From Acinetobacter phage Acj61: 64,000 bases of DNA. Shown piece by piece: positions 19,850 through 61,970 of this stretch. The number at the start of each line of letters is the position of its first letter. Position 1 is the first letter of the stretch. The stretch lies in sequence record GU911519.1; one strand, written 5' to 3'. The translations under genes and the position numbers were made by a program. The notes under the pieces were generated by a model. That model was not told the DNA's origin. It saw nothing but the letters and a program-made list of their open reading frames with translations, and did not search any database.

Positions 19850-19889
19850 GATAGGACTATTATAACACAGTCCTATCTCGATGTAAACT
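19850..19889 (-). promoter_or_regulatory. Early promoter (-35 GTTTAC, -10 TGTTATAAT) with its -10 inside the dyad GATAGGACT...AGTCCTATC
   Basis: The minus strand reads GTTTAC-N17-TATAAT-AGTCCTATCA. It lies upstream of the 19510-19827 ORF. Confidence 0.65.
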
Positions 19890-19890
19890 G

Positions 19891-20058
19891 CTATAGCAAC
19901 AATTCTGTTTCTAGAAGCACATCGCTATCGCTTTCAAAAACTGGCATCTGTTCTACATGCTGTAAGCATACACCAGGATGCACAGGACCATTTGCAGTTT
20001 CAACTACTAACAAGTCATCAATAGGCTGCTTACACACAGCACAAATTTGCTTTTCCAT
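19891..20058 (-). CDS. Small putative zinc-ribbon protein (CxxC...HPGxC)
   Basis: 55 aa. A GAGGAA SD lies 7 nt before the ATG. It is below the ORF-track length cutoff. Confidence 0.3.
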   Translation of the reverse strand: MEKQICAVCKQPIDDLLVVETANGPVHPGVCLQHVEQMPVFESDSDVLLETELLL

Positions 20059-20223
20059 GATAATTCCTCTAAATTAATTTAACCAAGTCCATAACCATCT
20101 AATATCATCTGAACACCTATCTATTCCGACCAAATAATAATGGGTGGATCTTAGCATTGATAGCATTGTATCATACAAATAAATACAGCATAGGCTCGCG
20201 AAAACCAAGTGTCTATTTTTTGA

Positions 20224-20622
20224 TCAAGCTAAGCCATTGCTAAGCTGTAACTTCAATGCTTCTAACGTGTCCGGGTTATCCAAAATGCTAAACCGTACGT
20301 CGACGATAATTGTGTTAAGGTCATATTGTGGAATGACATTGACACCTAATCGCACGATTCGAGGCTCGTATGTTCTAACTGCAGCAGTGATACTCTTTTC
20401 AAGCGTGTTTGCTGTTAGAGGAGACAAGTTCTCAAATAATTGATCTGACATATCACAACCAAATTCTGGGTCAAAAGGTTTTGAACCTTTTCGTGTTGTG
20501 ATAATCCCTAAAAGAGAGTTCTTGACAGCACGTGTGCCAACACTCTTTGCGACATCTCGGTTCCATGCCATTGACATTTCAGGCGAGATGTCTGTGTACA
20601 TCTGATTGATTGATACGCTCAT
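20224..20622 (-). CDS. 25: Baseplate wedge protein gp25
   Basis: 132 aa, the same length as T4 gp25. Conserved blocks are nearly identical (LLGIITTRKGSKPFDPEFGCD, SDQLFEN). Confidence 0.95.
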   Translation of the reverse strand: MSVSINQMYTDISPEMSMAWNRDVAKSVGTRAVKNSLLGIITTRKGSKPFDPEFGCDMSDQLFENLSPLTANTLEKSITAAVRTYEPRIVRLGVNVIPQYDLNTIIVDVRFSILDNPDTLEALKLQLSNGLA

Positions 20623-21278
20623 TATAAAATCCGAATGAATTCGCTAAAACCTTCAATGACGTGTACATGCTTCTTGCCGCATTTAGGACAAGTAATTGGC
20701 ACCGCCAACTGCACCTTTGGTGCTAATAAGAATTTTTTGATAGAATTAATATCATCAGGCGTAATAGCTTTGTGAATGTCATCGAGCTCGGATTCAGTCA
20801 ATTCATCAACTGGAATTCGATCGTCGCCTACGTACGCAGCTTCAATTGCTTTAACGAGCATAAGAGGCACGTTGTCATCATCAAACAGTTCTGGCCAGTT
20901 GAATGACAATTTAAAGTTCGGGAACGCATATAAATTTTCTGTGCTCTCGCCTTTGAAGTCAATACCTGCATGTGATAGATCGAGTTTGACTTGGAACTCG
21001 TGCTTACATTCACAGACATAATCCTGAAGAATTTCGTCTTGGTTGATGCTTCGTCCAATAAGATTAACGAGCAATAATTCTGCATCGTGTTTGGAAAGCT
21101 TAGAAGCATTTGTGTATTTCTCGATAACTTCTCGAGACCATTTTTTGATCAAGTCTGAATTATCAGAGCCTCGTGACAGCAGCAATTTCACATAGTCTTC
21201 TAACGTGATTGTTGTACACTCGACAGTTTGATCACTAAGTTTAACGCTAAATTTTGTTTCGTACATAATAGTCACCAC
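20622..21278 (-). CDS. 26: Baseplate hub subunit gp26
   Basis: 218 aa against 208 aa in T4. It has a CPKCGK motif shared with gp51. It is served by a divergent late promoter. Confidence 0.75.
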   Translation of the reverse strand: MVTIMYETKFSVKLSDQTVECTTITLEDYVKLLLSRGSDNSDLIKKWSREVIEKYTNASKLSKHDAELLLVNLIGRSINQDEILQDYVCECKHEFQVKLDLSHAGIDFKGESTENLYAFPNFKLSFNWPELFDDDNVPLMLVKAIEAAYVGDDRIPVDELTESELDDIHKAITPDDINSIKKFLLAPKVQLAVPITCPKCGKKHVHVIEGFSEFIRIL

Positions 21279-21287
21279 TTTATTGAG

Positions 21288-21299
21288 TATTTATAAATA
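21288..21299. promoter_or_regulatory. Bidirectional palindromic late promoter TATTTATAAATA serving gp26 (-) and gp51 (+)
   Basis: The 12-bp perfect palindrome contains TATAAATA on each strand. It sits in the 41-bp divergent spacer. Confidence 0.6.
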
Positions 21300-21319
21300 T
21301 TTTAAACACGGAGGCTTGT

Positions 21320-22078
21320 ATGGCTAATATTATTCGATGCAAACTACCTGATGGCATTCATCGTTTCAAACCATTCACAGTGGCTGATTATCGAGATTTC
21401 TTGTTAGTGCGCAACGACATGCTTTCTAAAGAGATCAAAGAGCAAAAAGAACTTGTCAATGAACTGGCTGCTGATTATTTCAGTGAGTACCCAGAAACTT
21501 GGCAGCAATACATTTTCTTGAATGTGTTCACAGGCTCGATCGGCAAAACGAAAATTCCAATTGTGTATGATTGTCCTAAATGTGGCAAAACACATAAGAG
21601 AATCTTCAATCTCGAGCAAGAACCACTAAGTGACCCAATACTTGAAATCAATGAAAGCACATCAGTACATTTCAAATTCCCTGAAGTCAATTCTGAAAAC
21701 TTGCAAGAGTTAGTACTTCAAAATATCAAAGGCGTTACTCATGACGAAAAATTCTATGAGTGGTCTTCTCTTGATGAGCAAACAAAAGAGAATATTATTG
21801 ATAGCATTGATTTTGAATCGTTCGAGAAATTGATCAAGAATTTGAAGCCTATTCACTTTCAACTTAAATTGAAATGCTGTGGTAATGAGTCAAAAATTGT
21901 GTATGATGACTTGCATTCAGTTTTCAATTTGCTAATTAATCCAGATGAAGTCTTTTCATTCTACGAGATCAATCACATTCTGATCAAGAACAAGTATGAT
22001 CAACAAGCAGTGATGAACATGATTCCGATTGAACGAAGTATGGCTCTATCACTTATTGAAAGGGACAATAAAAAATGA
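21320..22078 (+). CDS. 51: Baseplate hub assembly catalyst gp51
   Basis: 252 aa against 249 aa in T4. It has a CPKCGKTH motif. A late promoter lies at 21292-21299. Confidence 0.75.
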   Translation: MANIIRCKLPDGIHRFKPFTVADYRDFLLVRNDMLSKEIKEQKELVNELAADYFSEYPETWQQYIFLNVFTGSIGKTKIPIVYDCPKCGKTHKRIFNLEQEPLSDPILEINESTSVHFKFPEVNSENLQELVLQNIKGVTHDEKFYEWSSLDEQTKENIIDSIDFESFEKLIKNLKPIHFQLKLKCCGNESKIVYDDLHSVFNLLINPDEVFSFYEINHILIKNKYDQQAVMNMIPIERSMALSLIERDNKK

Positions 22079-30121: not shown

Positions 30122-30127
30122 TACACG

Positions 30128-31800: not shown

Positions 31801-31823
31801 GGAATAATTCCTTTGTTTGATTT

Positions 31824-31863
31824 GATAGGACCATTATATCATGGTCCCTTAGAGATGTAAACT
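31824..31863 (-). promoter_or_regulatory. Early promoter upstream of ligase gene 30
   Basis: Minus strand: GTTTAC...TGATATAATGGTCCTATCA. The -10 lies inside the dyad GGACCAT/ATGGTCC. Confidence 0.65.
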
Positions 31864-33142: not shown

Positions 33143-33175
33143 TTAATTATACCACAAAAGGCAGTCTAAGTAAAC
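33143..33175 (-). promoter_or_regulatory. Early promoter upstream of the NADAR-like gene
   Basis: Minus strand: GTTTAC-N17-TGGTATAAT. Confidence 0.55.
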
Positions 33176-33185
33176 TGCCTTTTAA

Positions 33186-33857: not shown

Positions 33858-33865
33858 TATTTATA
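33858..33865 (-). promoter_or_regulatory. Minus-strand late promoter TATAAATA upstream of rIII
   Basis: Reverse complement of the consensus octamer about 55 nt upstream of the rIII start. Confidence 0.4.
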
Positions 33866-33869
33866 ACGA

Positions 33870-33893
33870 AAAAAGGAGCCTTAAGGCTCCTTT
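33870..33893. terminator. Bidirectional terminator after gene 31
   Basis: AAAAGGAGCCTTAAGGCTCCTTTT, with A/T tracts on both sides. Confidence 0.65.
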
Positions 33894-33908
33894 TAAAAAT
33901 TTCAAACG

Positions 33909-34600: not shown

Positions 34601-35135
34601 AATTGATGATGTTTTCCCAATTCAGGGATGTGAGTTTTGATTTAGGCAATTGATGAACTTCAACGCCTGCATCAATAAGTTCTTGGTCCCAACCAGGTTG
34701 ATTTCGGTCATACAATTCACTATACACAAGTTTCTTGATGCCGGTTTGAAGAATTGATTTCGCACATTCTCGACAAGGAGATAATGTGACATACATCGTT
34801 GCTCCATCGATAGGAAGACCATTTTTTGCTGCGAATAAGATTGCATTCAATTCAGCATGAATTTCATGTGCTGACGACCAAGCGGAGTGAACTTCACGAA
34901 ATTCGTTTTTCAAAACAACTTGATTCACATGAGGCGGCACCGGATTGTAACGCTGTTCAGTCCATCCTTGTTCATGAGCATGATCACAACAGTTCACTCC
35001 ACCTTCACGAGTACCATTATAGCCAGTCGAAATAATTCGGCCATTTTTAGCGATCACTGCTCCAACTTTCCATGATACGCATTTTGATTCTTGTGAAACA
35101 AGGTATGCGATTTGCATAAATGAACTTGGCTTCAT
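34581..35135 (-). CDS. cd: dCMP deaminase
   Basis: 184 aa. It has the HAE...PCxxC zinc-deaminase motifs (SAHEIHAELNAI, LSPCRECAK). Confidence 0.9.
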   Translation of the reverse strand: MKPSSFMQIAYLVSQESKCVSWKVGAVIAKNGRIISTGYNGTREGGVNCCDHAHEQGWTEQRYNPVPPHVNQVVLKNEFREVHSAWSSAHEIHAELNAILFAAKNGLPIDGATMYVTLSPCRECAKSILQTGIKKLVYSELYDRNQPGWDQELIDAGVEVHQLPKSKLTSLNWENIINFGGQHD

Positions 35136-35545
35136 ATGTTACATCCTGGTGCTGGTTCACCGAACAGTTCCCAATGCAAACGATTCTTTTGAAGATCGCA
35201 TGTATCTTTGATGCTTGGCTTAGGTTTTGGAGTTTCTTTAACAGCTGGTTCAGGAACTGGGTCATTTGAACCTTCAGAATAATCGATTTCTGGATGACGC
35301 TCGATCGCTTGATTATAGTTGCTGCGTTCGTCCATCATTGTATCAACTTCATCAAATGTAGGACGTTTGAGATTTGAATCAGTTAGACGTTTTTCTGTTG
35401 CTGCATTCAAAACTTTGAGATATTGAATATCAGCTGAATAGTCTTGGCTATTCACAACTGCTAATGTTGCAGATGTAGCGCTGGCGATAGAAATGATTGA
35501 TGCAAGCAAAAGATGCTTTAGCGATGCTGGAGCATTTAGGTTCAT
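35132..35545 (-). CDS. Hypothetical secreted/periplasmic protein with an N-terminal signal peptide
   Basis: About 137 aa from the Met with an AGAGGAAATCAAAATG SD. It has a hydrophobic LLLASIISIASATSATLA leader. An early promoter lies at 35587-35625. It overlaps the cd start by ATGA. Confidence 0.5.
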   Translation of the reverse strand: MNLNAPASLKHLLLASIISIASATSATLAVVNSQDYSADIQYLKVLNAATEKRLTDSNLKRPTFDEVDTMMDERSNYNQAIERHPEIDYSEGSNDPVPEPAVKETPKPKPSIKDTCDLQKNRLHWELFGEPAPGCNI

Positions 35546-35586
35546 TTTGATTTCCTCTATTTCATGAATAGCCATTAGGTTATGTT

Positions 35587-35625
35587 GATAGGACTATTAT
35601 AACATAGTCCTATCATGAAGTAAAT
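35587..35625 (-). promoter_or_regulatory. Early promoter with a perfect 11-bp dyad GATAGGACTAT-TATAAC-ATAGTCCTATC around the -10
   Basis: Minus strand: ATTTAC-N18-TATAAT. It lies upstream of the secreted-protein ORF. Confidence 0.6.
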
Positions 35626-35630
35626 AGCTG

Positions 35631-35957
35631 TTAGGCTAATTTAACAACTAAATAACGAGTATTGCGGGTAACCAGAACTTCAAGATCAGTGTCAAGAACT
35701 TCGACTTGAGCAATACGAGATGTACGGACATAGTCTGCATCTTCGAATCGTCCAAGAGAATCACTGAACACATGACCATAGGCAACATTTGCATAAGGAC
35801 GTTCAACGATAAGAACTGCATGACAGTGATTGTCTTCTACCAACTGTTCGATATCGACATGAGCACGAATATCTTCCATGATTTCTGCTGCATCTTCATG
35901 AAGATCGTCGCTGATGAAATTATACTTTGCTTTAAGTGCTTTAACTAATGCAGTCAT
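35631..35957 (-). CDS. Hypothetical protein
   Basis: 108 aa acidic ORF in the pseT operon. Confidence 0.4.
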   Translation of the reverse strand: MTALVKALKAKYNFISDDLHEDAAEIMEDIRAHVDIEQLVEDNHCHAVLIVERPYANVAYGHVFSDSLGRFEDADYVRTSRIAQVEVLDTDLEVLVTRNTRYLVVKLA

Positions 35958-36325
35958 TAGATTACTCCAAAATGTTTAAGGGCTAAGTTGTTATAGGCTG
36001 CGAATGAGCCTGTTAATAAAACTGTTGGATCGAGCCATTCAACTAGTCCAGTCTCCGTGTCATCAACGCCTGCATTAATATCAGAGATTCGACACAAGAA
36101 TGTAGTAACTTCATGGCTTCCACATTGATGAGTAAAGGTCATTTCGCTTGTATGAATGACTGAATAACCTGTTTCTTCAAGAACTTCGCGTTCCATTGCA
36201 TCTTCGAGAGATTCATTACCATCGACCTTTCCACCAGGCATTCCAAAATCATTGTGATCATCTTTACGAGATACACACAACGCTTTACCATTACGAAGAA
36301 TCAGAGCACATACTGCTTTTTTCAT
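35957..36325 (-). CDS. Nudix hydrolase (MutT-like)
   Basis: 122 aa. It has the Nudix box GGKVDGNESLEDAMEREVLEETG. Confidence 0.75.
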   Translation of the reverse strand: MKKAVCALILRNGKALCVSRKDDHNDFGMPGGKVDGNESLEDAMEREVLEETGYSVIHTSEMTFTHQCGSHEVTTFLCRISDINAGVDDTETGLVEWLDPTVLLTGSFAAYNNLALKHFGVI

Positions 36326-36326
36326 A

Positions 36327-36515
36327 TCAACAAGTCCAAAAGATAATTAGTGGGAGACAGATAATTGCTATGATAGCAATTCCCCATCCGAATAATTTCA
36401 ATACGTCAATCACAGCTGCCTTTAAGCGTTCAATGATTGTGCCGTGTTCAAATGCAAAACTAATTGCGGTCATTATGACGAAGGCAGCCCAGATAAGGAA
36501 TATGCATTCAGCCAT
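36327..36515 (-). CDS. Small two-helix membrane protein
   Basis: 62 aa with two hydrophobic stretches. Its start overlaps the pseT stop (ATGA). Confidence 0.4.
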   Translation of the reverse strand: MAECIFLIWAAFVIMTAISFAFEHGTIIERLKAAVIDVLKLFGWGIAIIAIICLPLIIFWTC

Positions 36516-37438
36516 TAGAATTCACCGAATGCGATTTGAGCGCAGTTTACGCCGATGCGTCGCCACATTTCAACTACCCTGTCGCGGTCATCTACTGCGA
36601 GGACTACATTGTATCGAGGTGCAATATGCTCATAGAAGATTTCTTCTTTAATGATGTCATCCTTTCGACTATCGCCAGTTTTACGCATCCATAGCTCATC
36701 AGGTAAGATGCCATGCTCGTTTAACCATGCGTCGGTCATATCAAAGTACTTGCGTTCATCTGCTTTGATACCTGAATGACGTCCTGATACACAGATGATT
36801 TTGTGACCTGAAGCACGATACATATTCAACATATCTACAACAAATTCAATAGGGCTATCTTTATGGAGTTCCCATAACGCATACGGAGATCGATGATCGT
36901 TGTTAGCCAATGTACCGTCAATATCAAAAATGACTGCTTTAGGCAACTCTTTGTTAGGAACGTATGCAACATGTTCACCTAAATACTTTTTCATTTTCAA
37001 GTACATAGAACGCAATACGTCTTTAGGAACAGCTTTGTTGCCGCGAGTTAGGTTACGCTTTTCAAGTTCAACCCAAGGCACATCAAATGTCTTTTCTTCG
37101 ACAGCGATTGTAGGGATTTTCAAACCTGAATTTTTGATTTTGGCGTTCTTTGTTTCAACAACCTTTTTGTAACCATTGCGAGTTGACTCGTTCAAGTTCG
37201 TATCGGCAATGATCATAGTTTCAAAATGATCTTGTTCCAAGAACTGTTCTAATGCCTGTTTAACATGAGCAGTAACTGCTTGTTCTTTGGCACGTGAGTA
37301 TTTGTACTCTCCACCGAACATCATTTGGCGTAAGTCATCACGACATACGATAAACACTTTAGGATTTTTAGCTTGTTCGGTAGCCCAGGTAGATTTACCG
37401 GCTCCAGGAGCTCCGATTGTTAAAATGACTTTCTTCAT
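36515..37438 (-). CDS. pseT: Polynucleotide 5'-kinase / 3'-phosphatase
   Basis: 307 aa against 301 aa in T4. Walker A (GAPGAGKSTWA) plus HAD motif I (VIFDIDGTLA). The C-terminus is nearly identical to T4 (VVEMWRRIGV). An early promoter lies at 37462-37500. Confidence 0.95.
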   Translation of the reverse strand: MKKVILTIGAPGAGKSTWATEQAKNPKVFIVCRDDLRQMMFGGEYKYSRAKEQAVTAHVKQALEQFLEQDHFETMIIADTNLNESTRNGYKKVVETKNAKIKNSGLKIPTIAVEEKTFDVPWVELEKRNLTRGNKAVPKDVLRSMYLKMKKYLGEHVAYVPNKELPKAVIFDIDGTLANNDHRSPYALWELHKDSPIEFVVDMLNMYRASGHKIICVSGRHSGIKADERKYFDMTDAWLNEHGILPDELWMRKTGDSRKDDIIKEEIFYEHIAPRYNVVLAVDDRDRVVEMWRRIGVNCAQIAFGEF

Positions 37439-37461
37439 GTCTATACCTTCTTGGTAGATTT

Positions 37462-37500
37462 GATAGGACCATTATATCATAGTCCTATCATAAAGTAAAC
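37462..37500 (-). promoter_or_regulatory. Early promoter upstream of pseT, with a GATAGGAC...GTCCTATC dyad
   Basis: Minus strand: GTTTAC-N17-TGATATAATGGTCCTATCA. Confidence 0.65.
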
Positions 37501-37511
37501 TATTTTCGAAA

Positions 37512-38669
37512 TTAATATTCGTTTTTGAGTGTTTCAAAACCTGCTGGAACATATTTCTTGTAGTTCTTCATGAAAACTACGTTGATGTTTTTGATGGTTT
37601 GCTCTTGGTCCGCACCTTTATAGAGTTCCATCATGACACCGAATAATTCAAGTTGATCTGTGTTACGAAGAATTGTCTGGCATTCGATTGCATAGGTTTT
37701 GCGATCTGAACCAATCAATTGACGTTGCAAATCGAATACAAAGTTAGATGTCTTTTTGAGATAATCTAAGAATGCAGTTTCAAATGATTCAATTTTTGTT
37801 CGAGACAAGTCATCAGTGAACAGAGATTTCATGTCGTCAGAACCACCAGCAACAACGACCATGAATAACGCTTCGCTATTATTGAGAGTGTCTTTGACAC
37901 GATGCAAGTTTGAGTACCATTCAGTTTTGAGTTTGAATTTCAGACCTGACGCATGCTGGAACACAAAACCTTCGATGTCAACCATTTCACGAATTTCTTT
38001 GATCATTTCGTTAGTATCAATGTCTTCACGTGGTGGATAAACATCTATCAAATAATTACGAAGAACTGGGTCCTTCTGCAATTCAGCCATTGGCACGTAT
38101 TCACCGGTTTCGTTATGACGAACGTTAAGTAGAATTAAATCTTTCTTAGCATAGTTCAACACAATTCGGTTATTTGGTGCAACATATTCAAAGTTACAAG
38201 TGAAGCCATCTTTAGCTAATTCAAGTGCACGTTCAGCCAATGGTTTGTAATTGATATCGAGCAACAACTGTTTTGATTCAATTGCTTGAGATGAGCTAAT
38301 AGAACCTTTTGATTTCGTGTACAAATATCCTTGATCGACATAAGTAGAAATCAATGACCCATCAGCTTTAGTCATTGCATATTCAAGCTGAGAAAGATCT
38401 AAATCCATTGTGAATGGATTCTCTTCTAAGTTGAAGAATTTCTCCATTGGGCGAGCCATTACACGAACTGGCTGATTGTCGGCATCTAATTCGAACATGA
38501 TACCACGAGATTCTAGAGCACCTGGCAATAACCAATCAGAGTACGCTGCATAGTTATATGAGAAGATGCGACACTTTGTGCCAGGCTGTGTTACAACGTC
38601 TTTATAGAAAAACTTCGAGATGTCGTTTGGGTCTTGGAGAGCCATTAAATTGTCAAATAATTCTTTCAT
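37512..38669 (-). CDS. rnlA: RNA ligase 1
   Basis: 385 aa, colinear with T4 gp63 (RIFSYNYAAYSDWLLPGALESRGIMFE, EKFFNLEENPFTM). Confidence 0.95.
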   Translation of the reverse strand: MKELFDNLMALQDPNDISKFFYKDVVTQPGTKCRIFSYNYAAYSDWLLPGALESRGIMFELDADNQPVRVMARPMEKFFNLEENPFTMDLDLSQLEYAMTKADGSLISTYVDQGYLYTKSKGSISSSQAIESKQLLLDINYKPLAERALELAKDGFTCNFEYVAPNNRIVLNYAKKDLILLNVRHNETGEYVPMAELQKDPVLRNYLIDVYPPREDIDTNEMIKEIREMVDIEGFVFQHASGLKFKLKTEWYSNLHRVKDTLNNSEALFMVVVAGGSDDMKSLFTDDLSRTKIESFETAFLDYLKKTSNFVFDLQRQLIGSDRKTYAIECQTILRNTDQLELFGVMMELYKGADQEQTIKNINVVFMKNYKKYVPAGFETLKNEY

Positions 38670-38725
38670 GATGTATCCTCTTCGTTAATATGATCATTAT
38701 ATAACGAATAAATTAAAAGCAACAA
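38670..38725 (-). promoter_or_regulatory. Candidate middle (MotA-box TTGCTTTTA) / -10 TATATAAT promoter upstream of rnlA
   Basis: Minus strand: GTTGCTTTTAATTTATTCGTTATATAATGATCAT, then an SD and the ATG. Confidence 0.35.
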
Positions 38726-38742
38726 ATATTCGCTACGCGAAA

Positions 38743-38807
38743 GGGCCGTGAGGCCCTGTATCTTGTCGCCATTACTTCTGAGTCAGCTGGTCCGGACCCG
38801 GACCAGA
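38743..38807 (-). terminator. Stacked hairpins downstream of nrdB (AGGGCCGTGAGGCCCT; CTGGTCCGGACCCGGACCAG)
   Basis: Two GC-rich perfect stems in the 250-bp nrdB-rnlA spacer. Confidence 0.4.
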
Positions 38808-40053: not shown

Positions 40054-40125
40054 TGTATTTCCTCATTAAAACTTTTAGACATTATAACATAAATTGAAGG
40101 AAGCGGGACCGAAGTCCCGAATCAT

Positions 40126-44563: not shown

Positions 44564-44585
44564 TTCAATTTCCTCTATTTCAGAT

Positions 44586-44625
44586 GATAGGACCATTATA
44601 ACAAACAGTTCTAAGAAAGTAAACT
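44586..44625 (-). promoter_or_regulatory. Early promoter upstream of frd
   Basis: Minus strand: GTTTAC-N17-TGTTATAATGGTCCTATCA. Confidence 0.65.
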
Positions 44626-45117: not shown

Positions 45118-45132
45118 TTTCTCACCTACACA

Positions 45133-45178
45133 AAAAGGGTATGATAAGATTATATCATACCCTTTTCAAATCGTAAAC
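45133..45178 (-). promoter_or_regulatory. Early promoter with its -10 inside a 14-bp-arm hairpin AAAAGGGTATGATA/TATCATACCCTTTT
   Basis: Minus strand: GTTTAC-N17-TGATATAAT. The dyad is at 45133-45146 and 45153-45166. Confidence 0.6.
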
Positions 45179-46097: not shown

Positions 46098-46245
46098 AAT
46101 AATTTCCTTTGGAAGTTTTAAAAGATTTTGAAAGTTGTTTGATGTACGTTTCCGGTTACTACATTCAATTTGATGTACATCGATCAGAATGAATGTTTAT
46201 TATATCATAACAATTTTGAAGCAATCGTTATGATATTATTTATAC

Positions 46246-47484: not shown

Positions 47485-47520
47485 TGATAAGACCATTATA
47501 TCACTTCCTTGTGATAGCAA
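47485..47520 (-). promoter_or_regulatory. Promoter upstream of dsbA (-10 TGATATAATGGTCTTATCA; -35 region is TTGCTA/MotA-box-like)
   Basis: It has the conserved -10/downstream module. The upstream element resembles a MotA box rather than GTTTAC. Confidence 0.45.
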
Positions 47521-48588
47521 TCAGAATTGATTGATGTCCTTTAACAATTTTGACATGCCTGATTTCACGAAGTAACCATACATTTTTCCACGAGGCGCAG
47601 GCTTGTAGTTTTTGTACGTTTCGAGAATTGCATCAACCATATCCTGACGAATGTAATCAAAGTCAATCAAGACTCGATTCTGTTTGAAACGAATGAACTG
47701 AGCATCAGCAATGAACTTACCGAGTTTTTCATTGTCGTTGATAAATGGTTCAAAATCTTCAGATTTCAGGCCTTGTAACTTGATGAGTTTGAGAGCTTCA
47801 GTCACACCGTGTTTCTTATGTCCAACTTTCTTCATAACTTCTGCATGAATAGTTTCATACACTTGCTCGTCAGTTTTGCCGACCATTGCTTCGATATAAC
47901 TTGTCGATGTCGGAGGAGTACGTTCAACATCGACTTCATAATTCAACCAGAAATCACCACGAACTTTAATCGCTGCAACACAGTCTTTTCGGTCGCCTTT
48001 AAGAATTTTGACCATACAATCCATTTCTGGAGACTTAGTCTTAACTTTGACGAATTTTTTCTGCATCGGTGAATATTGATCTACATCTTGTAACTTGTGA
48101 AGTTGCGTGAAGTCACCATCTGATGAAATGATACGAACTTTGAAATTACCAGTTGTCGTTAGGTATTTTGCTAAAACTGCAATACAGTCATCGGCCTCAG
48201 CATGATTGACATCTAAGACAATGTATGGCATGTAGTCTTTCAACTCTTGAATTGTGGTCGATAGACCTTCGAAATAACCATCCCAATCGAAAGTTTCTGC
48301 TGACTCTTCACGAGCGATAGCACGATTTCGTTTGTAATAATCTTGTTCTTGGCGTCGCCAATACCCGTAACGGGCGTTATCAACACAGATCACTACTTTG
48401 TTGAAGCCTTCATTTTTGAATTTGAATGCATTGTGCTTTAAGGTACTCAAAATCATATGTCGTACTTCATGAACTGTGAATTTCATTCCAGGTTCGTATG
48501 TTTGCATCACTGTCGCTAATGCGATCTGTGATAAATCGACAAGAAGAACGCCTTCTTTGTCATCGAATAAATGATCTAAATTCATCAT
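47521..48588 (-). CDS. rnh: RNase H / 5'-3' exonuclease (FEN-1 family)
   Basis: 355 aa. Conserved SQIALATV and ISSDGDFTQLHK blocks. It carries a ~50-aa insertion in the C-terminal third relative to T4 (305 aa). Confidence 0.9.
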   Translation of the reverse strand: MMNLDHLFDDKEGVLLVDLSQIALATVMQTYEPGMKFTVHEVRHMILSTLKHNAFKFKNEGFNKVVICVDNARYGYWRRQEQDYYKRNRAIAREESAETFDWDGYFEGLSTTIQELKDYMPYIVLDVNHAEADDCIAVLAKYLTTTGNFKVRIISSDGDFTQLHKLQDVDQYSPMQKKFVKVKTKSPEMDCMVKILKGDRKDCVAAIKVRGDFWLNYEVDVERTPPTSTSYIEAMVGKTDEQVYETIHAEVMKKVGHKKHGVTEALKLIKLQGLKSEDFEPFINDNEKLGKFIADAQFIRFKQNRVLIDFDYIRQDMVDAILETYKNYKPAPRGKMYGYFVKSGMSKLLKDINQF

Positions 48589-48862: not shown

Positions 48863-51800
48863 ATGTCTGAATTAATCAAAACCAAATTCCGTGCATCATA
48901 TGGTCTCGATGCAGCAGGTGAGAAAGTTGTAAACGTTGCATTGGCTGATCGTACAGTGATGACCGATGGCGTTAACGTTGCATATCTCATCCAAGAAAAT
49001 ACTCTTCAAAAGTATGACCCAACACGTTCATACCCAGAAGGATTTGCTGTCATCTACCAAAACCGTACATGGACAGCAGTACGTGATACGCCTAACCCAG
49101 CTGGCCCATTCGATGAATTGTACTGGAAAGCTCTTCGTAGTGACCCAAAATGGATTCCAATCAATGCAGGTGTTCGTGCTTTAGAAGTAGGTAACTACAT
49201 CGCAGTCGACACCGCTCCAGGCAACGATGTTGAACTAACACTCCCATCCAATGCACAAACAGGCGATACCATTGTTGTCAAAGATATTGGTGGTCGTACA
49301 GGTTATGCTTCAGTAATCATCAAAGCTGGTCAACAATCGATTATCGATCGTGGTAAGCAACTTCAACAAGCACAAATGACAGTTCCTTACTCAGAATATG
49401 TGTTTGTCTTCGTAAATCGTTTATGGCACTTATACAACGGCTCAGAAGCTGATGGTGTCAAATATGTCACTACAGCAGGTTTAGGTGAACTCCAAGCATC
49501 AGACGTAGTTGTTCGTCAATATGATCGCTTGCAGCCAATCAAAGTGCGTTTCCCTAAGTATGCTAATTCTGGTGACATTATCTATTTCATGGGTATGAAT
49601 AACATCAATGCTTTAGAACCATACTACCACTTAGAACTTGAAACTGCTGATGCTAACTCAAGTATCTTTGAACCGGGTGTGAAATCTCGAGTTATCTATC
49701 GTTCATTGAGTGGTTACTTCGTATTCGATTCTTCAACCAAAACTTGGATTCTATTTGACAGCGACACAACAGATCGTCTTCGTACCGTTTCAGGCGACAC
49801 AAACTTGTTCCCGAACGAGACTGTTTCTGTAGTAGGCACAAATAACACAGACCCATCTTCATTGACTTTGACTCTTCCAAAGAATGTTGATGCTGGTGCT
49901 CAGATCACAGTTGCATTGAATTATATGCGTCGTGGTCAAACTGTAAACATTGCTACACTTGCTCCTGACATGATCTTGACAAGTAAAGAATTGATGCAGT
50001 TCCCTAAACGTTCAAAATATCCGCCAGAAGGCAACTGGGTCAACACAAATAAATTGACTTTCAACGGTGCTGCTGATTATCCACCAATCATCACATTCGC
50101 TTATATCCCTATGGGACCAGTAGGTGCTCCACCAGTTCTTGGTCAATGGATGGTTGTAGAAAACGTTCCACAGTTAGAACGTGTTGACCCATCAACTGAT
50201 GCTACTCGTGCTCGTTTAGGTGTTATCGCATTAGCGACTCAAGACCAAGCAAACTTGAATCATGAAGACATCACTGATGCATCTCGTGAAATTGCTATCA
50301 CACCAGAAACTTTAGCGAATCGTACAGCGAATAAAACTCGTCGCGGTATTGCTCGAATTTCAACTGATGCAGAGAATCAATATCCAACTAATGACTCACG
50401 TTATTTAGACGATGTTATTGTAACTCCAAAAATGTTGAATAACAAGCAAGCTACTGAAATCATGCGTGGTATTGCTGAAATCGCTGATCAAGGTGAAGCG
50501 AATGGTTCAACTGATGATGCACGAATCATCACAGCTAAGAAATTAGATGCTCGACGTGCTAACCCTGACATGGCTGGTGTAGCTCCGGTTGTACGTGCAG
50601 GCGGTGCACCTGTAACAGGCACAGGTAAGACTCGTGATGATAAAGGTACATTGATTTATGATTTTGATGACTACTCAAATATCGTAACTCCAAAAACTCT
50701 TCGTGAATACATTGCTACCACATTATCTCTTGGTTCTGTGTACATTGCTACAAATGCCGAAGTTATCGCTGGAACAGCTACAGATGCTAAGCATCCTATC
50801 GTTGTTACACCTGCTGATTTGCATTCAAAAACTGCTACAGAAGCTCGAATTGGTTTCTCTGAAATTGCTACACAAGATGAAACGAATGCTGGTACCGATG
50901 ACTTCCGATTCATCACTCCAAGGAAACTTGCTGGACGTGGTTCATCAGAAACAATGACAGGCGTCGTTCGAATTGCTACACAAGGTGAATTCGATGCAGG
51001 TGTTCTTGACAACGTATTCAGTTCTCCATTGAAAGTTAAGACTCATTTTAACTCAACTGCACGTACAACTGTTGATCAAACTTCTGGTCTTCGTGAATCT
51101 GGTACATTATGGGGACAATATTCTCTTAATATCCTTCAATCAACTGAAGCTCAACGTGGTTCATTACGAGTTGCTTCACAAGCATTGACTGATGCAGGTG
51201 TTGATGACCTGACCGCTGTGACTCCTAAAAAGTTACAAGCTAAGAAAGCGACAGAAGCTGTTGAAGGTATTGTACAAATCGCTGATAACGCTGTTACTGC
51301 AGCTGGTGCATCAAACAGCCGTGCTGTGAGTCCACAAAGTCTCAAATACGTGATGCAAGATCATATTGACTGGGAAGCTACTACAACTCGTCGTGGTACA
51401 GTTAAGATGACTGAAGGCGCATTGACTTGGTCAGGTAACGATACACAGGGTAACACAAAACCTGTCGATCAGTTCTTCAAGTCAGGTTATGCAATTTCAC
51501 CATTTGAATTCATCTCAACATTGTCTCATTACTTGCCTATCAAAGGTAAAGCATTTGATTCTGATTTGTTAGATGGAATTGACAGTACTCAATTCATTCG
51601 TCGTGATATTGATCAAGTTGTTGATGGAGCTTTGACTCTTAATAAGACATTGACTACTAAGAATGTAGTTGCTAGTGGTAACTCTACAGTTACAATAGGC
51701 ACAACTGGTTCTGGTGTATTAAATGACGATCAAGATAAATTGTTATTGACTCCGCCTACTCACACAGCAGGTCCTTGGAAATTTGCTATCAACGATGGCG

Positions 51801-52717
51801 CATTAAGTACTTTGAAAATCAAGTATGGTGCAACAGCAACTCCGGTTGAATTTGGTTCTGAAGGCGATACAAAATTCAATGGCAATGTAACCATTAGCAA
51901 AGCGTTAAATGTTGGAACTACATTAACTGTAACAAACAACATCAACACAGCTTCTGGGTTATATGCAATCAACAGCAAACCTGTTGTTCAAATCGCATCT
52001 AACGTATCAACGTTTGGCGACACATCCATTTCTACTTCTATTCGGAGCTCAGATGCTAATGCTATAACTGCGGTCGATGGAACTGGTGGATATGTTATTG
52101 TAACATCAAAGAATATGCAGACTCAATTGAATCCACTTTACGTTCGACGTGATGGGTCAACAATGAGTGGTCGTTTGACAAGTACAGCACCTTCTGTATT
52201 TGCTATCCCGCAAACTTCTGCTGCTATTCGTGATCCGCTGGATGCCTCAAACTTTGGTACATGGACTACTGAGATCACAACAGACACACTCTACAAGCAA
52301 TTACCGGGGTATGTCGTTCCAGTTCCAGACTTGAACAATGATACTGGTGAGCCAACAGGCTTCATCAAAGAGTACAAAGAATTTGCAGGTCCTGGTACTC
52401 TGTCTCAATTCGGTTCAAGCGCTTCAAATGGTTCCGGTACATATCAAATGTGGGCTCCACGTCCAACAGTTACGACTGATAACCACCAAGCTCAGACATT
52501 CTACATGCGTTCTTGGAACACAGTTAAAGGTCAATTTGATGGATGGGGACGAGTGTATACTTCGAACAACCCACCAACAGCAAATGAAATTGGTGCTATG
52601 TCTGATAATGGTTCAATCTTCTCTTCATTGAAGATTCGTGATTGGATTCAAATCGGTAATGTACGCATCTATGCTGACCCATTATCTCGTTCAGTTAAAT
52701 TTGACTGGATTGATTAA
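48863..52717 (+). CDS. 34: Long tail fibre proximal subunit gp34
   Basis: 1284 aa against 1289 aa in T4. It is the first gene of the 34-35-36-37 block after rnh, as in T4. Confidence 0.9.
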   Translation: MSELIKTKFRASYGLDAAGEKVVNVALADRTVMTDGVNVAYLIQENTLQKYDPTRSYPEGFAVIYQNRTWTAVRDTPNPAGPFDELYWKALRSDPKWIPINAGVRALEVGNYIAVDTAPGNDVELTLPSNAQTGDTIVVKDIGGRTGYASVIIKAGQQSIIDRGKQLQQAQMTVPYSEYVFVFVNRLWHLYNGSEADGVKYVTTAGLGELQASDVVVRQYDRLQPIKVRFPKYANSGDIIYFMGMNNINALEPYYHLELETADANSSIFEPGVKSRVIYRSLSGYFVFDSSTKTWILFDSDTTDRLRTVSGDTNLFPNETVSVVGTNNTDPSSLTLTLPKNVDAGAQITVALNYMRRGQTVNIATLAPDMILTSKELMQFPKRSKYPPEGNWVNTNKLTFNGAADYPPIITFAYIPMGPVGAPPVLGQWMVVENVPQLERVDPSTDATRARLGVIALATQDQANLNHEDITDASREIAITPETLANRTANKTRRGIARISTDAENQYPTNDSRYLDDVIVTPKMLNNKQATEIMRGIAEIADQGEANGSTDDARIITAKKLDARRANPDMAGVAPVVRAGGAPVTGTGKTRDDKGTLIYDFDDYSNIVTPKTLREYIATTLSLGSVYIATNAEVIAGTATDAKHPIVVTPADLHSKTATEARIGFSEIATQDETNAGTDDFRFITPRKLAGRGSSETMTGVVRIATQGEFDAGVLDNVFSSPLKVKTHFNSTARTTVDQTSGLRESGTLWGQYSLNILQSTEAQRGSLRVASQALTDAGVDDLTAVTPKKLQAKKATEAVEGIVQIADNAVTAAGASNSRAVSPQSLKYVMQDHIDWEATTTRRGTVKMTEGALTWSGNDTQGNTKPVDQFFKSGYAISPFEFISTLSHYLPIKGKAFDSDLLDGIDSTQFIRRDIDQVVDGALTLNKTLTTKNVVASGNSTVTIGTTGSGVLNDDQDKLLLTPPTHTAGPWKFAINDGALSTLKIKYGATATPVEFGSEGDTKFNGNVTISKALNVGTTLTVTNNINTASGLYAINSKPVVQIASNVSTFGDTSISTSIRSSDANAITAVDGTGGYVIVTSKNMQTQLNPLYVRRDGSTMSGRLTSTAPSVFAIPQTSAAIRDPLDASNFGTWTTEITTDTLYKQLPGYVVPVPDLNNDTGEPTGFIKEYKEFAGPGTLSQFGSSASNGSGTYQMWAPRPTVTTDNHQAQTFYMRSWNTVKGQFDGWGRVYTSNNPPTANEIGAMSDNGSIFSSLKIRDWIQIGNVRIYADPLSRSVKFDWID

Positions 52718-57800: not shown

Positions 57801-57843
57801 AAAAATTAAAATGAATACTCAAGACAACAAACAACTAACACGA

Positions 57844-57870: not shown

Positions 57871-57944
57871 GTATAAATATTATCATAAGTCATAAGACTG
57901 TAACTACCAAGTTAATCCTATCAACGCTACAAAAGTATATAACG

Positions 57945-58900: not shown

Positions 58901-58930
58901 AATAAGGATTCCTTTAAAATTGAGTTAGAG

Positions 58931-59572
58931 TTAAGCGGTTTCGATTAATGCATCGATGATGTTGACAATGTTGTCTTCAGTACATTCGATATCGAAATAA
59001 GTTTGAGCAGGTGTTTGTCGATATTTCATGCCAATTGATGCAAGTTTCTCGACAACTTTATCAGATGGTTTTCTACCAACTACTCGTACTTCGCCTTTGT
59101 TTTTGATTTCGAGTGCTCCAACTGAAGAGATTCGTTTAGCAAATAAGATTAAAAAATTGCTTCGATCTACGACAGTGTTCTTCACTTCGATTTTGTCTGT
59201 TAAATATTCGAGTGCAAAATCTTTGAACGCTTCCATACATTCATGAATTTCTCGTTTCTTACGAGTACCTTTAGCTTCAAGAAGTTCTGGTCGTTCTGAT
59301 TCAACCCAAGCTTTTGCTGCAGCTTCGATTGCATCATCACCTTCAGGCGTTGTCAAGAATTTGTCTACAGAGATTTCAACCAGGTTTAACGCTGAGTTCT
59401 GCATCTTAGTTAGAGATGATATAACATCAATAACATCAGATTCGATGATATCTGCAATCATCTGAGGAGTCTGAAATGACTGTTTGTACAACTCTTTCAG
59501 AATTTTGTAATCCAATTCGACAAGTTGACCTTTATCTCCAAGGATTTGATTTAAGTAATCAATCTGCTTCAT
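58931..59572 (-). CDS. motA: Middle-transcription activator MotA (probable)
   Basis: 213 aa against 211 aa in T4. It lies between asiA and gene 52, as in T4. Direct sequence resemblance is only weak. Confidence 0.55.
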   Translation of the reverse strand: MKQIDYLNQILGDKGQLVELDYKILKELYKQSFQTPQMIADIIESDVIDVISSLTKMQNSALNLVEISVDKFLTTPEGDDAIEAAAKAWVESERPELLEAKGTRKKREIHECMEAFKDFALEYLTDKIEVKNTVVDRSNFLILFAKRISSVGALEIKNKGEVRVVGRKPSDKVVEKLASIGMKYRQTPAQTYFDIECTEDNIVNIIDALIETA

Positions 59573-59594
59573 AATAATTTATCCATATTTGATT

Positions 59595-59634
59595 TGATAA
59601 GACTATAATAACACAAGTCAAAGCGTTTGTAAAC
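59595..59634 (-). promoter_or_regulatory. Early promoter upstream of motA
   Basis: Minus strand: GTTTAC-N17-TGTTATTATAGTCTTATCA. Confidence 0.5.
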
Positions 59635-59647
59635 CGTTACATACCAC

Positions 59648-59672
59648 AAAAAGGGACCAATTGGTCCCTTTT
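59648..59672. terminator. Bidirectional terminator after gene 52
   Basis: AAAAGGGACCAATTGGTCCCTTTTT. Confidence 0.7.
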
Positions 59673-59675
59673 TAA

Positions 59676-61073
59676 TCATTTAGATAACTCATCTAAATCT
59701 TTTTCATATTCGATCTGAACTGTGGTCTCTTTCCAATAATCGAGTTCAGTTTTTGCGGCGTGTGCGGCTTCACGAAGACGAACAACTTCATCATCAGTCA
59801 AATGATAGAGATTCATTGCCAATAGTTGATCTTCAAAGCCTTGGAAAACCGAGATTTTCGAAAGTTCTTCTTTCAACTCAGATTTTTTCTTGCCTTTGAT
59901 GACGGTCTCACCATTGTTGACTGTTTTGATGAACATCGCCTTGGCAATAGCCAATTTGAATTGACGTTCGGTTTTGTTGATCATGAATTCGATACGTCCT
60001 TTGACATATTTCTTTCGTACTTCAACAAAGTACTTGATCAAATCTGATGCATTTTCAAATTTGTCGTTGAGTTTACCATTTTCATCGATGACTACGATGT
60101 ATTGAGGTACCTTTTCAGTAAGTTTGAAATCTCGCATGATTTTTTCATGCATCAAACCTTCATCTTCTGGCAACTTATAGTCCTTACGGAATTTGACCTT
60201 GAATCCGAAGCCATGCTTAGAACAGTCATCATCATATGTGATGAAGCCTTTGTCTTCTAATGGATCGAGAACTTTTTCAACGTACTTAGCACGATCGAAT
60301 GAGTATGGAATTTCAGAGATGTACATCTGAGTTTTTGAAGTGAATTTGTATACACCTTGTAACTCATATTTGCCATCTTCAGTTTTGACAATGTTACCGT
60401 TGAACTGCGGGAATGCAACTTCTGGTTCCTTGTCTAATTTGCCTTGAAGAGCCAATCGAGTACACTCAATCACAGATTCAAGACTGTGTGGCAAGATTGA
60501 AGTCGAATAACCTGTTGCAATACCACGTACACCGTTCAATAGAACTGTTGGGATGACTGGCAAATAATGTTTTGGCGGCAAGTGCTCTTCGTCTTCGTGT
60601 TGTGGAGCGATTTCGATGTCTTTGAACACTTTTCGGAAGTTGTCAGAGATTCGACAGAAAATATAACGAGATGCTGCAGCTTCTTGTACTAATCGAGAAC
60701 CAAAGTTACCTTGTCCATCTAAGAATGGGAAGTTGTTGTTCCATGTGTTTGCCATCAAAGCACCAGCTTCTTGAGCCGAGTTTTCACCATGGTGATAACC
60801 AGCGTCAGCAACACCACCAGCAACAGATGCTAATTTGTGGAATTTTTGATGATTGCCTTTAGCCATTTCGAGTGCACGATAAACCATGAAACGTTGAACT
60901 GGCTTGAAGCCATCCATTAAGTTCGGAATTGCTCGGTTTTCGACAGTATAAATTGCATAAGCCAATGCTTCGTTATTGATAATGCTATCTAATTCGCGAT
61001 CTACACTATTCATTTGAACTCCTGATTTGATAGTGGAAAAATTTACTGCAACCGAAGTTGCAGTTTGAATCAT
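59676..61073 (-). CDS. 52: DNA topoisomerase II medium subunit gp52 (GyrA-like)
   Basis: 465 aa against 442 aa in T4. It has the GyrA N-terminal signature (AIPNLMDGFKPVQRFMVY). Confidence 0.9.
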   Translation of the reverse strand: MIQTATSVAVNFSTIKSGVQMNSVDRELDSIINNEALAYAIYTVENRAIPNLMDGFKPVQRFMVYRALEMAKGNHQKFHKLASVAGGVADAGYHHGENSAQEAGALMANTWNNNFPFLDGQGNFGSRLVQEAAASRYIFCRISDNFRKVFKDIEIAPQHEDEEHLPPKHYLPVIPTVLLNGVRGIATGYSTSILPHSLESVIECTRLALQGKLDKEPEVAFPQFNGNIVKTEDGKYELQGVYKFTSKTQMYISEIPYSFDRAKYVEKVLDPLEDKGFITYDDDCSKHGFGFKVKFRKDYKLPEDEGLMHEKIMRDFKLTEKVPQYIVVIDENGKLNDKFENASDLIKYFVEVRKKYVKGRIEFMINKTERQFKLAIAKAMFIKTVNNGETVIKGKKKSELKEELSKISVFQGFEDQLLAMNLYHLTDDEVVRLREAAHAAKTELDYWKETTVQIEYEKDLDELSK

Positions 61074-61245
61074 TATAAACTAATTTCCGAACAGCTATTT
61101 GACTAGCTTAAAGCATACTATGAAGAATATGATGTTCGTTAAAATGAATGGGACAACAAAATTCAGGTTATTGAAGTCCATTGCTGGCGTTGCCTTGTGA
61201 ATTGACGCATACAAAACCATTAGAACCATTGCCAAAATTTGATTA

Positions 61246-61428
61246 CTAGTCATTGTGACCTCCCATTAAAAAGTATACTGCACCAGACACAATCACTGTC
61301 CAGTTGAAATAAATCATGTTGTCTGTCAGATCACCTACGTATAGGTCATGTGCCGATAAAATCATTGCGATAATTACGATAAACACCATCATATTAGTAC
61401 TTCTGTGCGTAGAATTTGAAGTTGTCAC
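61246..61428 (-). CDS. Small membrane protein (ndd.1-like position)
   Basis: 60 aa with two hydrophobic helices. It overlaps the ndd 3' end. Confidence 0.3.
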   Translation of the reverse strand: MTTSNSTHRSTNMMVFIVIIAMILSAHDLYVGDLTDNMIYFNWTVIVSGAVYFLMGGHND

Positions 61429-61867
61429 TCAACATACGATTGAGTTCTTCAAGATTCTGGAAACGATCGTTATGGCTGCGAGTAAGCAATAATGCAAACT
61501 TACCTTTCATGAATCCGTTCGTTAATGGCTTCATATGTTCTAAAGGCAAGAAGAACACATCGAATGGTACATGAGCATTCATGATAACTTCACCTACAGA
61601 AGAACGTTGCAAACGTAACTGAGATGCAGTGTTGTTGAAGCCTTGTTTCGAACGTTGGCGACCTACATAGAATCGTGCGTAAACAGTTTCTTTACGTGGG
61701 TGTACCATGAAGTAGAAGCCTGGACGAGACAAGTCAGCAGTCGGTTTTAATCCGAGAGCAAAGTTCTTGCCAGGTTCACGAAGCTTGCCAGTTGATGTGA
61801 ACTGTGCAACTCGTTGAGCTCCTACGACACGTAGGTCTTTAACACGCATAATTGATTTAACTTTCAT
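61394..61867 (-). CDS. ndd: Nucleoid disruption protein Ndd
   Basis: 157 aa against 151 aa in T4. Conserved SRPGFYF, ARFYVGRQRSKQGF, MKPLTNGF and EELNRMLSDNFKF blocks. Confidence 0.85.
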   Translation of the reverse strand: MKVKSIMRVKDLRVVGAQRVAQFTSTGKLREPGKNFALGLKPTADLSRPGFYFMVHPRKETVYARFYVGRQRSKQGFNNTASQLRLQRSSVGEVIMNAHVPFDVFFLPLEHMKPLTNGFMKGKFALLLTRSHNDRFQNLEELNRMLSDNFKFYAQKY

Positions 61868-61930
61868 TTCATATTCCTCTTAAACATTACAATTGAATTA
61901 ATTTCTCTAACAATATTGAATATTGTTTTT

Positions 61931-61970
61931 GATAGGACCATTATATCACATCTTTTTGATAAAGTAAACT
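61931..61970 (-). promoter_or_regulatory. Early promoter upstream of ndd
   Basis: Minus strand: GTTTAC-N17-TGATATAATGGTCCTATCA. Confidence 0.65.

Follow-up and report, generated by a model that had tools for sequence, protein, structure and literature searches.

Early promoters of Acinetobacter phage Acj61 are probably promoter/stem-loop cassettes of the PeSL type

Promoter-early stem-loops (PeSLs) were described in the coliphages RB49 and phi1 as repeated intergenic, A+T-rich regions with a sigma-70-type early promoter, a stem-loop, a Shine-Dalgarno (SD) sequence and an ATG (Arbiol 2010, PMC2839356). The commonest place of the stem-loop is between the two boxes or over the -10, and one RB49 stem-loop was terminator-like in a lacZ assay. 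The same study reports PeSL-like sequences in the Aeromonas phages 44RR2.8t, 25 and Aeh1 and in RB43 and JS98; later, PeSLs were extended to PST/T4 and to nt-1/KVP40. For T4 and PST, Comeau 2014 (PMC4122927) gives the promoter as TTTACW-N17-TAYWAT with weaker, A+T-richer stems of the type 'AGNA-loop-TCNT', and Repoila et al. 1994, as cited by Arbiol 2010, had found PeSL-like elements at the IP loci of T-even phages. Here we analyze a stretch of 64,000 nt from Acinetobacter phage Acj61 (GU911519.1), hereafter the window, in which early promoters on the minus strand are combined with stem-loops. Judging from the sequence, these are probably composite promoter/stem-loop cassettes of the PeSL type, in which the hairpin would act in RNA that is read through from the upstream gene.

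The motif GTTTAC-N15-19-TATAAT has eight exact matches in the window, all on the minus strand, compared to an expectation of 0.05. A relaxed scan adds two promoters whose -35 starts at 35625 (ATTTAC) and at 59634 (-10 TATTAT). With one mismatch allowed and the TG of the extended -10 required, nine early promoters are obtained. We name them by the first base of the -10: 19864, 31838, 33151, 35601, 37476, 44600, 45154, 59610 and 61945 (minus strand). They consist of GTTTAC or ATTTAC, a spacing of 18 nt and TGnTATAAT or TATTAT, with an A-rich region upstream, and are predicted to be strong sigma-70 early promoters of the T4 type. They sit ahead of homologues of the T4 early genes 30, pseT, frd, motA and ndd and of small open reading frames (ORFs). 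The upstream stop codon is 2-11 nt away from the -35 (41 nt at 59610), the next start codon follows 14-66 nt downstream, and every promoter points at an ORF start. A preliminary description of this DNA had counted ten early promoters. Nine of them are confirmed, but the one at 47485-47520 lacks GTTTAC, has TTGCTAT at about -30 and is a middle-type promoter, as indicated by this MotA-box-like element and by the MotA and AsiA proteins that the phage encodes. Together with it, the early promoters form ten cassettes within 42 kb, all of them intergenic. A match to GTTTAC-N17-TATAAT at 49920-49948 (minus strand) was not counted as an early promoter because it has no TG and lies inside a gene 34-like ORF. 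It is antisense to this large ORF (48863-52717, plus strand) and probably arose by chance, or is possibly an antisense promoter.

A conserved module, RGTCYTATCA, occurs 11 times compared to 0.46 times expected, and eight of these copies abut a -10 hexamer on the minus strand; GATAGGAC is found nine times in the window (0.69 expected). The module had been proposed to follow all of the promoters as GGTC(C/T)TATCA. This exact form is present at five sites and AGTCYTATCA at three, while the module is missing at 33146 (TAATCCATCA) and displaced by 3 nt at 45149 (CTTATCA). Since it is also found at the middle promoter at 47485-47520, it is not specific for early promoters. Its core CTATCA corresponds to the conserved ..CTATCAAC.. 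after the -10 of many T4 early promoters. Such promoters have 'additional regions of consensus' (Hinton 2010), and C is preferred at positions -3 to -1 (Nolan 2006). The RGTCYTATCA region is presumably fixed by promoter function, as discriminator and start site, with the A of TATCA as the inferred first transcribed base (+1).

At five of the nine early promoters the -10 is part of an inverted repeat whose folding is far more stable than that of shuffled sequences. The longest Watson-Crick pairing of the spacer with the 18 nt that follow the -10 comprises 12 bp at 45154 (14 with G.T included), 10 bp at 35601, 9 bp at both 37476 and 19864, and 5 bp at 31838 (plus one G.T). As RNA, the five elements fold into stems of 8-16 bp with a 6-nt loop (-13.1 to -21.5 kcal/mol, z-scores of -2.8 to -5.8); as DNA, the energies on either strand are about -6 to -12 kcal/mol, and hairpins of -9.4 to -11.9 kcal/mol on both strands have z-scores between -4.6 and -6.1. 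The hairpins with GATAGGACT-type arms (class A) are centered near -11.5, and the element at 45154 (class B) is centered 4 nt further downstream. The earlier assignment of the -10 to a palindrome at several promoters thus holds for these five, with the proposed arms of 8-14 bp corrected to stems of 11-12 bp and a 6-nt loop, but the -10 is not enclosed by a dyad at 61945, 59610 and 33151, and the dyad at 44600 is decayed. When every -10-like hexamer of the 64 kb was scanned, none of the others had a dyad exceeding the 6 bp that chance yields. Among 156 distinct GTTTAC..TGnTATAAT promoters in a random sample of the IMG/VR database, stem lengths equal those of permuted and mirror controls. Hence the dyad is not a by-product of the promoter consensus, and its interpretation as a general property of this consensus was discarded.

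The class A promoter at 19849..19888 (all features in this paragraph are on the minus strand) has its -35 GTTTAC at 19883-19888 and its -10 TATAAT at 19859-19864, flanked by the left arm GATAGGACT (19869-19877) and the right arm AGTCCTATC (19850-19858). A stop codon lies 2 nt before the -35 and the ATG of a 105-aa ORF is located at 19827; the RNA folds with -16.9 kcal/mol (z -4.9). At 35586..35625, with ATTTAC as -35 and the -10 at 35596-35601, the arms are TGATAGGACT (35606-35615) and AGTCCTATCA (35586-35595), and the fold reaches -17.8 kcal/mol as RNA (z -5.8) and -10 kcal/mol as DNA (z -5.4). The promoter of pseT (polynucleotide kinase; 37461..37500, -10 at 37471-37476) begins 11 nt past the rnlA stop codon and pairs TGATAGGACT (37481-37490) with GGTCCTATCA (37461-37470; RNA -17.5 kcal/mol, z -4.7). 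A variant of class A precedes gene 30 (DNA ligase; 31823..31862, -10 at 31833-31838), where GGGACCAT and ATGGTCCT form a stem with one G.U (RNA -13.1 kcal/mol, z -2.8). The class B promoter at 45128..45178 (-35 at 45173-45178, -10 at 45149-45154) is fused to the predicted terminator of gene 32. Its hairpin (45133-45166) begins 23 nt after the gene 32 stop codon and consists of the 14-bp arms AAAAGGGTATGATA and TATCATACCCTTTT and the loop TAATCT, followed by a U run (RNA -21.5 kcal/mol, z -4.8). The promoter of frd (dihydrofolate reductase; 44585..44624) carries the module as GGTCCTATCA; its left arm is a decayed remnant, and folding compared to shuffles yields no significant hairpin (z -0.6).

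Hairpins are not confined to the -10. Eight of the ten cassettes combine a promoter with a stem-loop, which lies over the -10 in five, over the -35 in one and upstream in two; z-scores of -2.8 to -5.8 against shuffles cover seven of these eight hairpins, the A+T hairpin upstream of 61945 being without a shuffle test. In the early promoter at 33146..33183 (minus strand; -35 at 33170-33175, -10 at 33146-33151), a terminator-like hairpin, AAAAGGCAG..CTGCCTTTT (33156-33183, z -4.4), surrounds the -35 and precedes a U run. Upstream of the motA promoter (59595..59673, minus strand; -35 at 59629-59634, -10 TATTAT at 59605-59610, module AGTCTTATCA), a terminator-like hairpin after gene 52 occupies 59648-59673 (AAAAAGGGACC-AATT-GGTCCCTTTTT, z -3.3), in short GGGACC-AATT-GGTCCC and T5. 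The ndd promoter (61930..62005, minus strand; -35 at 61964-61969, -10 at 61940-61945, module GGTCCTATCA) is preceded at the end of denB by a hairpin of A and T only, GAATTATTTTT..AAAAATAATTC (61978-62005). An immediate U run follows the stems at 45133-45166, 33156-33183 and 59648-59673; there is none at 19864, 31838, 35601 and 37476. A terminator after gene 32 is conserved in T4-like phages (Nolan 2006). A simple terminator scan flagged 33156-33183 on the plus strand only and missed 45133-45166, presumably because of its G+C and loop rules; the scanned range excluded 59648-59673. With Rfam covariance models, no family reached its gathering score anywhere in the window.

The same design recurs in other phages. 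A 48-nt query with the 37476 element retrieved 398 phage records, including 258 from Escherichia and 59 from Acinetobacter phages. In the Escherichia records, about 89% identity is seen at 5-7 places per genome. E. coli Mosigvirus G53 has four promoters of the type GTTTAC..GATAGGACT-ATGT-TATAGT-AGTCCTATC, two of them with a G.T in the left arm, and a fifth with the unrelated arms TGAGAGC/GCTCTCA. The -10 hairpin geometry is also found in contigs resembling Serratia and Acinetobacter phages. In T4, the same register is observed at the promoters of dmd (GACAAGACT/AGTCTTGTC), mobD.2 (13 bp, AGTTGACAAGATT/AATCTTGTCAACT), motB (GGGACC/GGTCCC) and cd.3 (GGTAGAGTT/AGCTCTACC), and further hairpins overlap the -10 of the ipI and frd.1 promoters; altogether, four fixed-register dyads occur among about 21 strict candidates and six significant folds among 37 relaxed ones. 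Among 114 GTTTAC..TGnTATAGT promoters from an unbiased IMG/VR sample, six form 7 or more pairs in the fixed register, compared to 0.4 expected, and the arm variants in IMG/VR include GTAGGAGC/ACTCCTAC, CCTAGGGTC/GACCCTA and CCTAGGGCC/GGCCCT. The orthologous ligase promoter of Acinetobacter phage Acj9 has an unrelated perfect 12-bp dyad around the end of its -10, GTGTTTGTAGTA-TAATGG-TACTACAAACAC, in the shifted register of 45154 (4 nt). At the Acj9 orthologue of 33151 the hairpin around the -35 is kept as AAAAGGACT..AGTCCTTTT, with three compensatory pairs relative to the Acj61 hairpin; other Acj9 hairpins lie upstream of the -35.

These data make it very improbable that the dyads are functionless products of chance or of recent duplications of a single promoter. 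The identical arms in three copies would fit a duplication. However, stems of at least 9 bp have a chance of about 0.001 per promoter, the copies in the window are similar at their functional positions and no further, with different flanks and different bases at the five free spacer positions, and independent arms occupy the same register in several genera.

The 16-mer TATAAT[AG]GTCCTATCA was found at 21 + 53 IMG/VR loci, many of them in coding sequence. By a rough, uncomputed estimate this count is near chance, and we make no claim for the 16-mer as a widespread phage signal. Every T4-like context with TATAGT carries the left arm. Contigs from outside the T4-like group also contain the 16-mer in promoter-like surroundings, some with a TTGAC-type -35 and an SD-ATG downstream, and some matches adjoin what looks like a tRNA gene end. 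In the literature, the motif strings matched only unrelated primers, and a search for maps of T4 transcription start sites or 3' ends found nothing usable.

Pairing between the arms was examined in an unselected set of 30 strict promoters from the window, G53 and T4. In the proposed register 63.6% of the cells are paired, compared to 34-52% with the partner slid, and the covariation score is 0.297 compared to at most 0.18; 2-5 of 500 shuffles reach the observed values. In a set of 26 distinct stem-bearing promoters, double-sided changes occur in 10 of 10 pairs and in 35 cells (8.0+-2.5 after shuffling, with none of 500 shuffles reaching the observed value); since this set was selected for pairing, only its compensatory counts carry weight. 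The non-Watson-Crick pairs within the stems (pairs 1-10, flanked by Watson-Crick pairs) are seven G.U and no A.C on the sense strand. Natural variation points in the same direction. The gene 30 promoter (31823-31862) is polymorphic, and two of its five changes fall in the stem, where both keep sense-strand pairing (G.U to A-U and G-C to G.U); in a population variant of 35601 the U-A closing pair is changed to U.G. The covariation argues for selection of the stem-loop for pairing itself and, in this small sample, the strand bias favors folding of the sense strand, i.e. of the RNA.

The preliminary description also considered the dyad as a possible site of a dimeric repressor. The operators of dimeric helix-turn-helix repressors (LexA or phage-repressor type) can overlap the -10, and a dyad in this position would occlude RNA polymerase. 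A dimeric phage or host protein binding to TAGGAC-N-GTCCTA over the -10 could accordingly shut off a subset of the early promoters, and the symmetric core TAGGAC..GTCCTA is indeed conserved in Acj61, in Acinetobacter phages and in E. coli Mosigviruses. We consider this improbable nonetheless, because an operator calls for one symmetric sequence at a fixed position, whereas the arms differ within the same geometry (GATAGGACT, AAAAGGGTATGATA, GACAAGACT and GGTAGAGTT in T4, GTGTTTGTAGTA in Acj9) and covary. The center of symmetry is not fixed either: it is displaced by 4 nt in the 45154 element and in the ligase promoter of Acj9, and other hairpins lie at the -35. Single changes in the arms result in G.T rather than in random mismatches. 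Half of the promoters have the downstream half-site alone. The module is present without any left arm at 61945, 44600 and 59610, at promoters of Acj9 and at the middle promoter (47500). We know of no cognate repressor for this dyad, and no candidate protein was sought. The mechanism by which T4 early promoters are shut off is unexplained (Hinton 2010; Uzan and Miller 2010), which would leave room for such an operator. Yet four of the nine early promoters in the window and about 31 of the 37 T4 candidates have no significant hairpin. Since most early promoters are without the dyad, it cannot be a general shut-off operator, and this unsolved aspect of T4 stays unexplained by dyads.

The elements might instead act as DNA, as a cruciform or single-strand hairpin that exposes the -10 in its loop and tunes open-complex formation to supercoiling, or that marks sites for replication or recombination proteins. 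The hairpins are stable on both strands and their center is A+T-rich, and there are traces of events in DNA. In the wastewater contig ERZ965129 k127_256399, which is 98.7% identical to the window over 2.8 kb, the loop TAATCT of the gene 32 terminator/promoter (45147-45152, minus strand) is replaced by its exact inverse AGATTA, a change that preserves the stem and abolishes the -10 TATAAT. The orientation of the window is seen in eight other contigs. Either a genuine template-switch inversion or an error in this one assembly could account for the variant. In the T4 RefSeq record, positions 133300-133313 are annotated as 'inverted complement of previously reported sequence; corrects the early promoter Pe133295', and these 14 nt lie within the cd.3 promoter hairpin GGTAGAGTT-GTGATATTAT-AGCTCTACC. 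Loop inversion may thus be recurrent at promoter hairpins, and the palindrome would be at least a mutational substrate in DNA. As a main function, however, a DNA structure appears unlikely. The G.U bias favors one strand, and a cruciform would put A.C mismatches on the other; equivalent hairpins also occur away from the -10. Moreover, cruciforms and palindromes are attacked by endonuclease VII and gp46/47, enzymes that T4-type phages encode. A related, speculative and rather doubtful idea is that the -10 in or atop a perfect palindrome makes these promoters invertible and that phage populations carry heritable on/off variants of early genes. If so, a template switch that inverts the loop would silence or reverse one early promoter and leave its hairpin intact.

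We favor the interpretation as composite cassettes with an intercistronic RNA hairpin, because the hairpins always lie between the stop codon and the next SD sequence, their position relative to the promoter varies and three of them have the features of canonical terminators. As the intergenic gaps measure only about 60-110 nt, a hairpin that ends the upstream cistron must overlap the next promoter. In the main class, the free spacer (-26 to -17) would have evolved to complement the fixed region from -6 to +4, and the extended -10 would become the top of a hairpin of 11-12 bp. The transcript from the promoter itself contains just 4 nt of the right arm, so the complete hairpin could form only in read-through RNA. 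The sequences themselves show the promoter motifs, the fold stability, covariation, a strand bias and the occurrence of the design across phages, while the start site, the action in RNA and the effect on transcripts are inferred. Where a U run is present (45154, 33151 and 59610), the hairpin would most likely be a terminator or attenuator; without it, as in the GATAGGACT class, it would most likely serve as an attenuator, a 3'-end stabilizer or a barrier to processing.

Several points speak against this interpretation. The class A hairpins run into A-rich sequence instead of a U run and are consequently not canonical intrinsic terminators. The count of G.U versus A.C pairs is small and some elements may share descent, and the covariation set of 26 promoters was chosen for its pairing. 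The stability of the hairpins as DNA keeps a role at this level possible, and the evidence for Acj61 comes from sequence. Finally, the core TAGGAC/GTCCTA is conserved across genera far beyond what pairing needs. This conservation is partly explained, since the right arm is part of a conserved promoter region that is also found without a left arm. An otherwise free spacer that evolves to complement this fixed region would account for the conservation of both arms.

The cassettes agree with the PeSLs of RB49 and phi1 in their repeated intergenic A+T-rich location, in the order of a sigma-70-type early promoter, stem-loop, SD sequence and ATG, and in the variable position of the stem-loop (upstream, at the -35, between the boxes or at the -10). 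An early promoter, a stem-loop in a described position and the repeated intergenic placement can all be recognized in the Acj61 sequence. The role proposed for PeSLs, termination or attenuation of upstream transcription, may apply here as well. The RB49 elements differ in having TTGACA-N17-TATAAT and polyG/polyC stems, where Acj61 has GTTTAC and TGnTATAAT; the Acj61 stems are mixed or A+T-rich with the core TAGGAC/GTCCTA, and most of them, unlike the RB49 PeSLs, lack a U run. PeSLs are preferentially located in hyperplastic regions beside ORFans and indels. Some cassettes in Acj61 precede small ORFs of unknown function and others precede 30, pseT, frd, motA and ndd; several elements thus belong to conserved core genes, whereas the RB49 PeSLs belong to ORFans. 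With respect to the T-even elements, 'AGNA-loop-TCNT' fits the AGGAct..agTCCT of Acj61. A figure legend in Comeau 2014 places the PST stems 'just upstream of' the promoter, whereas five of the Acj61 hairpins lie over the -10; the same -10 geometry was found here at the T4 promoters of dmd, mobD.2, motB, cd.3 and ipI. Compared to intrinsic terminators that overlap a promoter, 45133-45166, 33156-33183 and 59648-59673 share the G+C-containing stem and the U run after a gene, and the GATAGGACT-class hairpins at 19864, 35601, 37476 and 31838 differ by the absence of this run. The alternative already raised in the preliminary description, a PeSL-like stem-loop, is therefore preferred to a repressor site, given the covarying arms, the G.U pairs on the sense strand and the hairpins over or upstream of the -35, all in positions described by Arbiol 2010. 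Its attribution of PeSLs to Aeromonas and RB43-group phages needs to be amended insofar as they were defined in RB49 and phi1, although the former phages and RB43 are mentioned in that study.

Arbiol 2010 (PMC2839356) and Comeau 2014 (PMC4122927) proposed that exchange between PeSL copies shuffles genes, and mini-circles were detected there. The cassette might then be mainly a recombination module, with a hairpin that is carried along or promotes the exchange. The occurrence of the element at non-orthologous positions in phage KARL-1 and in many genomes would agree with this. Nevertheless, we judge recombination to be an unlikely main function: the copies share only about 25-30 nt of interrupted identity, located at functional positions, the covariation reflects selection on pairing itself, and the elements also precede conserved core early genes and not just small ORFs. 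It is possible as an additional consequence of the cassettes. The KARL-1 copy was rejected as an orthologous site and is uninformative in this respect, because it is located near the primase gene and not between rnlA and pseT.

Middle promoters of the window show related arrangements. The middle-type promoter upstream of the dsbA-like gene (47485..47524, minus strand) contains the MotA-box-like sequence GATTGCTAT at about -30, the extended -10 TGATATAAT and the module GGTCTTATCA; RNA folding revealed no significant hairpin in this region. Upstream of gene 32, at 46199-46236 (minus strand), ATATCATAACGATT and AATTGTTATGATAT form a 14-bp hairpin with one G.U. The MotA box ATTGCTTCA lies in and next to its loop, and the extended -10 TGATATAAT begins in the right arm. 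This element is, by its sequence features, a putative middle promoter built into a hairpin, comparable to the PmSLs of phage nt-1. Terminator-like hairpins were also noticed upstream of rnlA (38700-38760, GGGCC-TCAC-GGCCC) and of the nrdB-like gene (40070-40115, GGGAC-TTCG-GTCCC), both on the minus strand and each directly followed by a MotA-box-like sequence and then TATAAT. At 33860-33894 (minus strand), the putative terminator AAAAGGAGCC-TTAA-GGCTCCTTTT is followed at once by TATAAATA, the consensus of T4 late promoters.

The window belongs to a T4-like myovirus. Its gene order between 19 and 64 kb corresponds to 122-170 kb of Acj9 and to 120-169 kb of T4, and this stretch includes the genes 30, pseT, rnlA, nrdB/A, frd, 32, 59, dsbA, rnh and 34-37 as well as asiA, motA, 52, ndd, denB and rIIB. 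The top DNA match in the phage collection is the ligase gene of Acj9 with 74.6% identity, and NrdA is about 69% identical to that of Acinetobacter and Serratia T4-like phages; the source phage represents a distant, Acj9-like lineage. Exact-protein look-ups in metagenome assemblies led to a scaffold of 163,409 bp and to several wastewater contigs with 96-98% identity, compared over stretches of about 4 kb only, while a PseT-based locus search of IMG/VR found no close relatives. A relative with 96% DNA identity over 34900-38700 of the window has other gene calls downstream of pseT, namely a 143-aa NUDIX protein, and a 62-aa ORF is missing. This suggests frameshifts or small indels among the small genes.

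For the most part, the Acj61 elements are a new example of the known PeSL design. The covariation across genera provides new support for selection on sense-strand pairing in the stem-loop half of PeSLs; covariation, fixed register and sense-strand bias are not mentioned in the published PeSL descriptions as far as these were accessible. The natural compensatory variants, those of T4 included, offer a clean set for testing intercistronic hairpins that lack a U-tract. If the proposed cassettes operate as suggested, two signals, one closing a transcription unit and one opening its successor, would share the same 40 bases of a very compact phage genome.

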